A stretch of DNA of 64,000 nucleotides from Naegleria gruberi (lineage: Eukaryota). The notes under the pieces are model-generated. The model was not told the origin of the DNA. It worked only from the letters and a program-made list of their open reading frames with translations, and did no database searches. This document shows, one piece after another, positions 34,874 through 63,742 of the stretch (within the stretch, counting starts at the first letter, position 1; each line of letters begins with the position of its first letter). Where the stretch lies: assembly GCA_000004985.1 (NCBI GenBank), contig GG738854.1. One strand, given 5' to 3'. The translations under genes were made by a program, and so were the position numbers.

Positions 34874-34945
34874 AGCAAATTGGCGCAGCGGAAGCGCGAT
34901 GGGCTCATAACCCATAGGTCCTAGGATCGAAACCTAGATTTGCTA
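34874..34945 (+). tRNA. Initiator tRNA-Met (CAU)
   Basis: 72-nt cloverleaf read directly: acceptor AGCAAAT/ATTTGCT (A1:U72), D-stem GCGC/GCGC, anticodon stem ATGGG/CCCAT (three G:C pairs), loop CTCATAA, T-stem CTAGG/CCTAG, T-loop ATCGAAA (A54/A60). These are eukaryotic initiator hallmarks. No intron. An oligo-T terminator (TTTTTTT) lies ~10 nt downstream. Confidence 0.9.
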
Positions 34946-35246
34946 CTCCTTTTTTTGCTTTATAAAAAGATTAAACAATTTTGCAAGATGTATTGCAAGA
35001 CGGAATATTAATAATGTTGAGGTCTTTATTAGTAAATTTTACAAGAGAGGACAAATGAAAGAATTATTTTAACCAAACAATACAAAAAAATGTCTCACGG
35101 TATGTAGGCCAATCATCCAGATTTTTTCAATGCATTATCACATCATATTACAAACCTTGATCGGAATAACAAAAACCATAGGAAGTGAATCAAAGGTCGT
35201 CATTGAAGGTAGGTACAGTAATTAGCAATAGTATGAGGTAATTGTG

Positions 35247-52627: not shown

Positions 52628-53689
52628 TTAAATCTTGAAAATGAATGTTTCAAACAGTGGTCTAAATGCATCCAATTCCTTAATATCTGCAGTGTTATCA
52701 TATGATGCTGAATTAATTTTACCAATATCAAGATATTTCAATGAAAGTGAAATACTCTTATTTAGTATGAGAGATTTACAACTTTCCAAATCTGATGATG
52801 CTCTTATGATTAATTTTTCGAGTTGGAGTGTACATTTGATATTGGAAACAGAATTCAAAATTTTTGGTAGTTCAATTTTCAAATATTTCAGATTTGACCA
52901 AACTGGATTATTGAGAATGATTGAAAATCCTTCATCCCAATTTTTCAAAATTGAATTAAGAAATGGAGCAATGACAAGCTTTTTCAATTTGGAGAATAGT
53001 TGATTATTGCACATTAATTGAATATCTTCCAATGTTACTAATTCCCATTTCAAAATTAATGCGGTTAAATTGATTAAACAATTAGTTCCAGAGCTAACGC
53101 TACCAAAATTGGTAAAACTATTACTTTGCAAATTCAGAGTTTTGAGATTTCTCAAAACTTTACTATTGAAAATATCCGAAAGTCCTCTATTTGTAAACTT
53201 GTGATTGATAATTGTCAAATTTTCCAACTTGGCAAATATTTCACAATTAGCTATTAATCCAATCTCATTTACGAGTCTGTTTGCTGGATCAGTAAAGTCA
53301 CCATCAAATAATTCCTCCATTGATTCCTGATATTCCAAATATAGAGTCTTTAAATTTCTCAAATGAGGATTTTCAACGAATCTTCTAAAACTTTCCACAA
53401 CAGTCAACTTGTTATCGAATATTTCCAAGTCAGAAACATGCTCCATCAAAATGTGATCGGTAATTTTAAATAAATTATCGTGAACATCACTAAAGTATTG
53501 TAGGTTGATTGACCGAAAGTGTTGACTTGCTGCTAACCATGATTTGGAGATTATTCGAAATTTGAGAGCCTCTTTTCCTCCTATCATTTCCATCATGATA
53601 AGACAAATCTCTGGTTGCATTTTTTTAATGTTTAACAAGTTCAGGGAAGTTTCTAATAGAAATTTAGTCCAAGAAATGGTGTTGAGCAA
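52628..53689 (-). CDS. F-box/leucine-rich-repeat (RNI-like) protein
   Basis: The N-terminus PEICLIMMEMIGGKEALKFRIISKSWLAAS is F-box-like. Repeated L..L.L..N.I/L modules (LKTLNLQSN, LINLTALIL). No introns. Confidence 0.55.
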   Translation of the reverse strand: MLNTISWTKFLLETSLNLLNIKKMQPEICLIMMEMIGGKEALKFRIISKSWLAASQHFRSINLQYFSDVHDNLFKITDHILMEHVSDLEIFDNKLTVVESFRRFVENPHLRNLKTLYLEYQESMEELFDGDFTDPANRLVNEIGLIANCEIFAKLENLTIINHKFTNRGLSDIFNSKVLRNLKTLNLQSNSFTNFGSVSSGTNCLINLTALILKWELVTLEDIQLMCNNQLFSKLKKLVIAPFLNSILKNWDEGFSIILNNPVWSNLKYLKIELPKILNSVSNIKCTLQLEKLIIRASSDLESCKSLILNKSISLSLKYLDIGKINSASYDNTADIKELDAFRPLFETFIFKI

Positions 53690-53787
53690 TCAAAGATAAG
53701 AATTGTGCAAACATCTTTTTTTTATAATTTAATACTGGGTTCTCACACGTTTATTTTTCAAAATTGTTTAAAGAATGAATTATTCTC

Positions 53788-54965
53788 TTAATTCTTCTTC
53801 TTGTGTTCCTTTTTCTTTTCAGGAACATACTTGTCAACCTTAATTGGGGAACAAACCTTCTTCTTCTTGGCACAGACAGATTCTTCACCATACTTGACAC
53901 ATTTCTTGTGACCACCAACGAATTGATACTTGGCACAGACCTTATAACCAGGTGACTTCTTGACACACTTCTTCCAGTGCTTCTTCTTGATACATCTTGA
54001 TTTGGTTTGATGATATTGAGTACAGAAGTTGACAGCCTTATAGTTAGCACAGAATTTACGTTCCTTGAACTTTTCACAAACTCTTACTCTCTTCTTGAAA
54101 TCACAGAATTGATTTTGACTCCACTTGGTACAGAAACGAGCCTTCTTTTGAGCAACACAGAACTTTCTATCAATGAATTTAACACATCTCTTAGTGTAAC
54201 CCTTCTTGAGACTGAATTTAACCTTATTGTATCTGACACACTTCTTAGTCTTGGTATATTTGGCACAAATCTTATGACACTTTTGTTGACAGAAAGCATG
54301 ATAATAAGTATCAGTCCATCCCTTGTAATGTTTACCGTTAACCTTCTTCCATCCCTTTTGGCATTTACAGACTTTCTTGTAGGCAGAACAGTAAGCATCG
54401 AGCTTGTATTCAGCACATCTCTTCTTGTAGTGATATCCGACCTTTGGAACATTAATGAATTTGGCACAGACATTTGACTTGTCATACTTGGTACAAACGA
54501 AATGATAAGCATATTCATCACAAGCATTGTTCTTGCCCTTATGTTCACACAAATTCTTCCATGTTGACTTGATACAATACTTTTCAGTCTTGTGCTTGTC
54601 ACAAACTTGCTTGTAACCTTTGAAAAAGTTTACAAAAATTGTAATATTTCAAATAACTTACCATGACCCAAACACAAGTTTCTAGACTTGGAATACTTAT
54701 CACACTTGCTAAATCTCTTATATTTCAAACACTTTCCTTTGCCAACCAACTTCCAATCACAGCACTCTTTCTTAGTTCCAATCCATTCATAATCTGAACA
54801 CTTTCCCTGGACAGTCTTGTAATGAGTACACTTCTTGTAACAGAATTGTTGATGTTCTCCGTAAGTATCAACATTCTTTGCTGGTTCTGGTTTACTTGGA
54901 TTTGCCAAGACCAAAGCAGCGAATGCAAGAGCAATGCACAAGCTTATTATGAATTTTGTTTTCAT
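53788..54965 (-). CDS. Secreted, extremely basic, cysteine-periodic tandem-repeat protein (2 exons, ~377 aa)
   Basis: Exon 1 54965-54662 encodes the signal peptide MKTKFIISLCIALAFAALVLA plus Cys/Lys-rich sequence. A 44-nt GTAAGT...CAAAG intron (54618-54661) follows. Exon 2 54617-53788 encodes ~25 tandem ~9-aa units each starting with Cys (CVKFIDRKF/CVAQKKARF/CEKFKERKF...). About 45 Cys and a large Lys/Arg excess. Confidence 0.65.
53800..54600 (-). repeat. Coding tandem repeat (~27-nt period) encoding C-x-K-[FY]-x-x-[RK]-K-F units
   Basis: The periodic tgt...aag...ttc codon pattern in exon 2 of the Cys-rich gene produces long spurious ORFs in other frames and strands (54007-54477 +, 54084-54602 -). 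Confidence 0.6.
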
Positions 54966-62997: not shown

Positions 62998-63669
62998 TTT
63001 GTTGTTAATAATTTACACGAGTGATTCTATTGATCAATAAGTTTGATTTTTTTTATGTTTTATTTGTTCCAAACGAAGTTAGGGCTATTTATAAGATGTT
63101 GCTCATTTCCCGTTAGCAGAACAAGGAACTATGAATTCTTTGAAGGTGAACTTTTATGTATGAGTTCACTGTGGGAATGATAACGAGGTTACACTTTTTC
63201 ACAGCATCATTCTATACACGTCAGCTGAGATAAGATAAAATCAAGCATCCGATACACCCCACCAATATCTATCTGAATTTAAAATCTTGAAGTTTATTTG
63301 ATGAAAAAATATTCAACAAAAATCCTTTGTGACCAAATGTGATTTTTGGAGTGGTTTCACGTCATGAAAGCACCAAACTTTCACATCATCATCTCAACAT
63401 CATCTATATAGTATTAAAAATAGTAATTTTTATTGGTGGATTACCATCATGAAATTGGAAGTTATCTTTCGTGATGGAAAAATTTAGAAAAATTAAAGTT
63501 GATTTACTATCATGTTGTCCATCAATGTAGTGATAGTAAATTTGTGGATAATTAATTTTTAGTAATTGGTGATTACATTTGAATCTACAGTCGGAAAACT
63601 GTAATGTAAGAAATGGTAACTGGTAGGATAAGAAGGTACATAGCATGATAGCCACCTCAGAATGTAATG

Positions 63670-63742
63670 GGGATGTAGCTCACATGGTAGAGCGCTTCTT
63701 TAGCATGGAAGAGGTACGGGGATCGATACCCCGCATCTCCAC
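63670..63742 (+). tRNA. tRNA-Ala (AGC)
   Basis: 73-nt cloverleaf: acceptor GGGGATG/CATCTCC with the G3:U70 alanine identity pair, D-arm GCTC...GAGC, anticodon stem CTTCT/GGAAG with loop TTAGCAT (anticodon AGC), T-stem CGGGG/CCCCG with loop ATCGATA. Oligo-T (TTTTTT) follows ~12 nt downstream. Confidence 0.9.

Follow-up and report, generated by a model that had tools for sequence, protein, structure and literature searches.

What kind of protein is made from a chain that is almost one quarter lysine and in which cysteine returns every nine residues? The question is raised by the gene NAEGRDRAFT_64508, which lies on the minus strand of a 64,000-nucleotide stretch of Naegleria gruberi DNA (assembly GCA_000004985.1, contig GG738854.1; hereafter the window). 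An earlier note, made from the letters of this DNA, had described the product as a secreted, very basic protein of some 25 tandem nine-residue units that belonged to no named family. We find that the cysteines of this protein, and of those relatives that were tested, are spaced as a palindrome, a pattern that probably reflects one very long hairpin whose strands are linked by a ladder of disulfides.

Composition and secretion

The 377-residue chain contains 88 lysines (24%), 36 cysteines (9.5%; 35 of them in the mature chain), where about 45 had been counted in the earlier note, and 28 tyrosines. Residues 6-20 form its only hydrophobic stretch (mean Kyte-Doolittle hydropathy 2.97, versus at most 0.35 elsewhere) and V-L-A stands before the predicted cleavage site, in agreement with the signal peptide that had been proposed; a segment of this kind is found in every full-length homologue. 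The predicted secreted chain has no membrane anchor, and the mature protein of 356 residues lacks N-glycosylation sequons and includes 50 aromatic residues (14%), with tyrosine at 8%. Its net charge of +71, together with the lysine content, bears out the strong basicity, but an isoelectric point well above 10 was an overestimate, the computed value being 9.7 with free cysteines and 10.2 with the cysteines taken as oxidised.

A nine-residue period at the protein level

The period of nine is pronounced: 18 pairs of cysteines lie exactly nine residues apart, versus 3.3 +/- 1.6 in shuffled sequences (z = 9), and among the 34 intervals between successive cysteines 17 are exactly 9 and 5 exactly 10. 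The unit itself is much looser than had been supposed. In its full form C-x-K-[FY]-x-x-[RK]-K-F the strict motif fits only 2 units, and the relaxed C-x-K-[FYW] fits 10. What is left is a loose consensus: lysine is preferred at +2 and +4, position +3 tends to be aromatic, and the next cysteine tends to be preceded by V or F. The description of the chain as about 25 tandem units thus captures the cysteine period, but a head-to-tail array misses the mirror-symmetric organisation described below.

Tandem Repeats Finder reported 0 arrays at the locus, head-to-tail nucleotide copies not being detected, and self-identity at a shift of 27 nucleotides (nt) is 0.37 versus a baseline of 0.29. These two results rule out a recent satellite-like tandem array; the repeat is old and degenerate, and is visible solely at the protein level. 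Long open reading frames (ORFs) in the wrong frames, which had been put down to DNA periodicity, are indeed present (two of the wrong frames have 1 and 4 stops), but that cause is unsupported, and they are attributable instead to the amino-acid and codon composition, in which AAG, TGT and TTC are common and leucine and serine are few.

Mirror symmetry of the cysteines

The cysteine pattern is mirror-symmetric about residue 199. Read inward from either end, the spacings run 4, 10, 12(+1), 10, 9, 10, 9x6, 17, 9... and 7, 9, 12, 10, 9, 10, 9x6, 18, 9, and 10 consecutive cysteine pairs share one exact position sum. Allowing a tolerance of one residue, the N. gruberi protein (P0001) has 17 mirrored pairs, a number that 0 of 5000 permutations of the spacings attained (mean 11.1, maximum 15), even though these controls retain the same set of spacings. 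It is the irregular spacings, rather than the nines, that mirror one another: compared rung by rung, the segment lengths of the two arms are 10/9, 13/12, 10/10, 9/9, 10/10, 9/9 x6, 17/18 and 9/9.

The constant-sum statistic is too rigid for family members in which drifts of +/-1 accumulate, and for these we scored the alignment of the spacing list to its own reverse instead. This score was significant in 9 of 9 members tested, at 0/1000 for two members of a hyper-basic subfamily (P0026 and L008) and at p ~0.02-0.03 for two distant, less basic relatives (P0019 and P0018).

The two halves of the chain also appear to have changed together. In an alignment of 13 sequences (A2), the columns of G163 and S237 lie 74 residues apart; 5 sequences have a cysteine in each of the two columns and 8 have one in neither. 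C185, C187, C211 and C215 come and go as one group. In the divergent orthologues P0007 and P0015, segments rich in proline and tyrosine are inserted at the centre and at two sites that mirror each other, 143-152 and 246-255. Unlike the palindrome tests across homologues, these changes in the alignment are independent evolutionary events.

Predicted structure

Modelling with AlphaFold2 (AF2) from 7 sequences gave a mean predicted local distance difference test score (pLDDT) of 54 and already paired residues 136-193 with 207-266. With 13 sequences the mean rose to 75.8, with values of 70-93 over most of residues 41-358 and a predicted template modelling score (pTM) of 0.27, and the chain was modelled as a single antiparallel hairpin over 41-358, with its turn at 198-202 and with strand breaks that are also mirrored. 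Given the sequence statistics, the covariation and this model, which together are the grounds for a hairpin, we consider the mirrored-ladder topology likely.

In the arrangement that we propose, the 21-residue signal peptide would be lost and residues 42-357 would fold back at the apex loop (188-210) into one very long two-stranded antiparallel ribbon; at ~159 residues per arm it would measure 52-54 nm if extended. Cysteine i of the N arm would bond to cysteine (398-i) of the C arm, making ~17 disulfide rungs that are usually 9 residues apart and leaving one spare cysteine in the C68-C69 doublet. The 17 proposed pairs are 42-357, 46-350, 56-341, 69-329, 79-319, 88-310, 98-300, 107-291, 116-282, 125-273, 134-264, 143-255, 152-246, 169-228, 178-219, 185-215 and 187-211. 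The ribbon would be studded with lysine and aromatic residues, which are intermingled on each of its two faces, and both flexible tails would exit at the same open end, bearing (V/I)D(T/S)Y(K)P motifs. Motifs of the form [VI]D[ST]Y(K)P are limited to the parts outside the ladder (both tails, the apex and the bulges), with up to four tandem copies at the C-terminus of some paralogues, and D204 and Y206 of the apex are invariant in the 7-sequence alignment.

No solved structure in the Protein Data Bank matches by sequence or by fold. The matches that Foldseek returned were all non-significant, and all were to pore-forming toxins, in their long stem hairpins; lysenin, aerolysin, CDTb and anthrax PA are the only solved structures that it aligns, and they share very long two-stranded hairpins with the model. 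A relationship to these toxins was rejected, the matches being non-significant and amphipathic alternation being absent. Granulin/epithelin is a stack of beta-hairpins held by a disulfide ladder in place of a hydrophobic core. It packs 12 cysteines into ~55 residues as short stacked hairpins with CC doublets, whereas the Naegleria protein has a single cysteine every 9 residues and no Pfam match.

Several points tell against the hairpin ladder. The palindrome tests are not independent replicates, the homologues sharing ancestry. An odd rung spacing of 9 residues would, in a flat ribbon, alternate between hydrogen-bonded and non-hydrogen-bonded registers, and cross-strand disulfides are rare at hydrogen-bonded sites; the alternation implies a bulge in each repeat or a non-canonical geometry. 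The palindromic spacing could equally come from an antiparallel homodimer of extended chains, and what speaks for the hairpin over the dimer is only the Cys-free apex of variable length and the AF2 model.

An alternative is that there is no ladder at all: the cysteines would pair locally or bind metal, or the protein would be disordered for the most part, and a shallow alignment and a period-9 repeat would have produced the palindrome and the AF2 hairpin artificially. The poor first AF2 run and the low pTM would fit this, as would the awkwardness of an odd period for cross-strand disulfides, and any period-9 array trivially gives partly palindromic spacing. However, shuffles with identical spacing sets never match the observed symmetry, the mirroring is done by the irregular spacings and not by the nines, and neither the perfect covariation of cysteines 74 residues apart nor the insertions at mirrored sites would be expected. 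The clustered CxC, CxxC and CC arrangements of the small metallothioneins are absent from the 377 residues apart from one CKC and one CC. We regard the absence of a ladder as unlikely.

The family and its distribution

Pfam-A, whose families include spore-coat, keratin-associated, metallothionein, granulin, chitin-binding and EGF-like ones, contains 0 families that match P0001 at E <= 10, and a search with all 13 aligned members returned only chance-level hits to DUF3624 (0.14) and Rhv (0.036). The earlier opinion that no named family applies is upheld by these searches, and the match to a keratin-associated, metallothionein-like or spore-coat family that would have contradicted it was not found. 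A profile of the family matched 21 of 1.84 billion representative proteins, 3 of them unrelated, and 11 clusters in a set of 5.8 billion sequences. Those three (P0031-P0033) were rejected as homologues; they contain unrelated period-9 cysteine repeats, and one is an Alu-containing mammalian sequence. P0031 (2774 residues; profile E = 1.8e-7) has a different, neutral period-9 repeat (…SSFITSSTCFDYATLxAC…), and its cross-match is probably convergent periodicity, not homology.

The family has ~20 members. Those with a named host all come from Naegleria, namely from N. gruberi, from N. fowleri (FDP41_004030) and from N. lovaniensis; the others are environmental sequences. N. gruberi has four copies of two types. 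A third type (P0021, P0026 and L008), from environmental data, has 15 mirrored rungs and a net charge of +117 over 305 mature residues; L008 (metagenome contig Ga0115593_1350650) is full-length, with a coding sequence at ~18-998, 34% lysine and a 14-residue apex that includes VDSY. Extreme charge was observed only in members of the Naegleria clade, and distant relatives retain the cysteine scaffold at a charge of only ~+30, so the scaffold appears to be the shared core feature. One or two CC doublets stand beside a rung in most of the members tested, though not always at the same place, and are absent from P0019 and P0026; several members thus have an odd cysteine count and a potential free thiol. 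The gene is thus annotated already but uncharacterised, and the family is without name, domain or structure.

Two family members have unusual architectures. P0018 (contig L004, 3836-5977) carries an extra N-terminal region of ~340 residues (22-360) with a cysteine repeat of its own, of ~30 residues (C-P-x-G-x-K...), for which there is no Pfam match. P0025 (443 residues) joins SAM and PB1 domains to a lysine- and cysteine-rich ladder segment resembling the C arm, and is most likely a chimeric gene call of two neighbouring genes. As cases of fused domains, neither of the two is informative.

Function

Our overall reading, which we put forward tentatively, is that the protein is a secreted cystine-ladder rod that binds polyanions as a structural protein outside the cell, with the cyst wall as the likeliest site. 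As an abundant extracellular polycation it could act as a stiff rod that holds acidic polymers electrostatically, and it could become insoluble through its Tyr/Lys/Pro-rich ends and the spare thiol. The cyst wall would be the likeliest location, being the sole wall that Naegleria makes. The choice of a structural role follows from predicted secretion without a membrane anchor, the rod-like disulfide-braced body, the Tyr/Lys/Pro-rich ends, the spare thiol and the precedent of protist walls; the wall or matrix role as such, for which the evidence is indirect, we rate as possible and a shade more tentative than the reading as a whole.

Known protist walls are generally built from lineage-specific, cysteine-rich secreted proteins. 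Those of resting stages include the COWP/OWP proteins of Cryptosporidium and Toxoplasma, Jacob of Entamoeba, the CWPs of Giardia, Luke, Leo and Jonah of Acanthamoeba, and the spore-coat proteins of Dictyostelium, and COWPs have regularly spaced cysteines, as the Naegleria protein does. Like these proteins, the Naegleria protein is secreted, cysteine-rich, repetitive, restricted to a single lineage and probably abundant; it differs in having no sequence or profile match to them and no lectin or carbohydrate-binding module, and in being far more basic. Acanthamoeba provides a documented example of cysteine-rich, lineage-restricted wall proteins (PMC6541295). The features found here that are typical of the class are the predicted signal peptide, the cysteine content of 9.5% and its period of 9, and a family of ~20 relatives in which Naegleria is the only named host.

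Codon usage points to abundance. At 0.43 the GC content at third codon positions (GC3) is the highest among the 26 ORFs of the window (mean 0.29, next maximum 0.36), the preference for TTC (0.94) is also the highest in the window, and that for AAG is 0.81 versus a mean of 0.44, one other ORF of the window reaching 0.85. A bias of this strength suggests translational selection and high expression. The four N. gruberi paralogues are not among the entries listed in a trophozoite proteome table, which is weak evidence given that only 33% of the residues fall in tryptic peptides of >= 7 residues, and no family member is among the entries listed in the supplementary tables of three omics papers.

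Against the wall or matrix reading it has to be said that the protein has no carbohydrate-binding domain detectable with Pfam, and that, to our knowledge, characterised cyst-wall proteins are not typically extremely basic. The literature searched (on the identifiers, on the Naegleria cyst wall, encystation and proteomics, on lysine-rich secreted proteins and on disulfide-ladder rods) does not mention the protein; it contained no molecular description or proteome of the Naegleria cyst wall.

Given the charge, it is reasonable to ask whether the protein is instead directed at prey, as a cationic antimicrobial or bacteria-agglutinating protein that would be routed to the medium or the phagolysosome and would bind, disrupt or aggregate anionic bacterial envelopes. 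Theta-defensins, protegrins, tachyplesins and arenicins are likewise secreted and cationic. They consist of two antiparallel strands with cross-strand disulfide rungs, an arrangement proposed for the Naegleria protein from spacing, covariation and AF2; on this view it would be the counterpart, on a giant scale, of tachyplesin, protegrin or theta-defensin. A net charge of +58 to +117 across the family, the proposed ladder-hairpin architecture, the bacterivory of Naegleria, several diverging types of paralogue with differing charge, the codon bias suggestive of high expression, and mRNA-sized contigs of four members from a single environmental sample, consistent with active cells, are all in keeping with such a role. 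The beta-hairpin peptides, however, have 16-25 residues and 1-3 rungs, versus a proposed ladder of ~317 residues with ~17 rungs at 9-residue spacing and a mature chain of 356 residues here; at 42 kDa the protein is ~20x their size. There is no sequence relationship to them, and the Naegleria protein, known here from its sequence, has no hydrophobic ribbon face and no obvious amphipathicity for membrane insertion. An antimicrobial role would also account neither for the spare cysteine nor for the conservation of the Tyr/Lys/Pro repeats in the tails, and the scaffold is kept in relatives with a charge of only ~+30. We consider it unlikely, if the leading alternative.

The ends of the molecule invite a different comparison, with proteins that glue. 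Their motifs VDTYKPP and IDSYKP resemble the PPVYK of plant proline-rich proteins and extensins and the AKPSYPPTYK of mussel foot protein-1, proteins that are oxidatively cross-linked or adhere through their Tyr-Lys-Pro motifs, and a secreted adhesive or footprint protein, comparable to mussel or sandcastle-worm cement, might fix amoebae to negatively charged mineral or biofilm. A mature chain with 24% lysine, 8% tyrosine, 14% aromatic residues and no N-glycosylation sequons, secreted by prediction and without a membrane anchor, would suit that purpose, as would the mussel-like TYKPP-type terminal repeats. The likeness is nevertheless one of composition and of motifs of 4-5 residues (4-7 at most) confined to tails, apex and bulges. 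Nothing in those proteins corresponds to the ladder, which is the bulk of the chain, and the conservation of a rigid scaffold would go unexplained. Naegleria is not known to form 3,4-dihydroxyphenylalanine or to secrete an adhesive of this kind, and we find this account improbable.

Returning to the wall or matrix reading, we would go further only with reserve. It is possible, though less likely than not, that all of its elements hold at once and that Naegleria, including the pathogen N. fowleri, makes a major wall or matrix building block with an undescribed architecture: a monomeric beta-ribbon nanorod of ~50 nm without a hydrophobic core, with 15-18 even rungs, a charge of +60 to +117 and cross-linkable ends.

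If the ladder is real, the cystine-ladder principle would extend from 20-residue peptides to a protein of >300 residues without a hydrophobic core. On a basis that is computational throughout, 17 rungs over ~317 residues would be an extreme extension of what is known from peptides of 16-25 residues, and would provide a stiff, highly charged, genetically encoded nanorod for protein design and biomaterials. The genus-restricted secreted family, with its N. fowleri orthologue, offers a concrete candidate for a component of wall or matrix, and perhaps a marker specific to the genus; its lysine density may cause under-detection in standard proteomics, which may partly explain why the family went unnoticed.

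Gene model and genomic surroundings

On the minus strand the ORF that begins with ATG runs for 119 codons before it stops. Another long ORF lies in a different frame, and removal of one short intron fuses the two into 377 codons (Table 1). The spliced product is identical to the deposited XP_002680355, UniProt D2V6N9, annotated as "predicted protein" (100% identity over 100% of the length), and the splice that had been proposed from the letters therefore coincides with the deposited model. Homology comparisons also back it. The metagenomic contig L001, which encodes a close relative of the paralogue NAEGRDRAFT_74241, has for it an unbroken ORF of 396 codons that reads CLGHGYKQFC across the splice site, and genomic DNA of N. 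fowleri (L002) reads ...LCLGHGYKQ... without a break there, its introns being located elsewhere. In related strains, the ORF calls P0008, P0009 and P0011, made without splicing, lose the frame directly after LGHG. Three environmental contigs of 1.2-1.3 kb (L005-L007; 74-79% identical) contain a complete coding sequence, contiguous across the splice site, with a short leader and a trailer of 100-170 nt, and look like spliced transcripts.

In the second N. gruberi copy (NAEGRDRAFT_48501, P0010; 97% identical) the deposited model lacks GYKQ at this junction (LCLGH----VCDKH; A2 columns ~124-131). The gap locally disrupts the 9-residue cysteine spacing, and the annotated splice site of that copy is probably mis-set.

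Table 1. Features of NAEGRDRAFT_64508, in positions of the window
Feature	Position	Strand	Remarks
Whole coding gene NAEGRDRAFT_64508	53788..54965	-	Two exons, 377 codons + TAA stop
Exon 1	54662..54965	-	Codons 1-101 and first base of codon 102
Intron	54618..54661	-	44 nt, phase 1, GTAAGT...CAAAG (GT..AG); junction LGHG|YKQ collinear with L001 and N. fowleri genomic DNA
Exon 2	53788..54617	-	Remainder of codon 102 to codon 377; TAA at 53788-53790
Signal peptide (predicted), residues 1-21	54903..54965	-	MKTKFIISLCIALAFAALVLA; sole hydrophobic segment; AF2 helix
N-terminal tail, residues 22-41	54843..54902	-	NPSKPEPAKNVDTYGEHQQF; VDTY motif; pLDDT < 50, probably flexible
N arm of proposed ladder, residues 42-187	54361..54842	-	18 Cys; interrupted by the intron; mirror analysis; AF2 strands E41-91, E95-125, E134-197
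Apex loop, residues 188-210	54292..54360	-	QKGWKKVNGKHYKGWTDTYYHAF; Cys-free; TDTY motif; AF2 turn 198-202; length differs among homologues
C arm of proposed ladder, residues 211-357	53851..54291	-	17 Cys; mirror analysis; AF2 strands E203-267, E276-306, E310-358
C-terminal tail, residues 358-377	53791..53850	-	SPIKVDKYVPEKKKEHKKKN; counterpart of the (V/I)D(T/S)YKP(P) mini-repeats of paralogues
GTGTGAG, possible family-specific element of the 3' untranslated region	53742..53748	-	40 nt past the stop, after AAATAAA; membership in the feature uncertain

The heptamer G[CT]GTGAG is found 37-116 nt past the stop in the N. gruberi gene and in the mRNA-sized contigs L005, L006 and L008, near the 3' ends of the contigs and often beside an AATAAA-like run. 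Within 250 nt downstream it occurs in 0 of the 24 other long ORFs of the window. A general 3' signal was rejected, as GYGTGAG is not enriched across the window (5 found, 6.1 expected); it may be an element specific to the 3' untranslated regions of this family.

The match to the deposited protein marks the window as nuclear DNA of N. gruberi. It is AT-rich (~33% GC), and a tblastn search of its 64,000 nt found no further copy, only the gene itself and weak internal self-hits. The neighbouring ORFs encode ordinary eukaryotic proteins, among them a calpain, a RasGEF, an M28 peptidase and a VWA protein. The ORF immediately downstream (52628-53689, minus strand) encodes 353 residues rich in leucine and asparagine, with the look of leucine-rich repeats and no Pfam match at E <= 0.001. 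ARAGORN predicts two tRNA genes on the plus strand, tRNA-Met (CAT) at 34874-34946 and tRNA-Ala (AGC) at 63669-63742.

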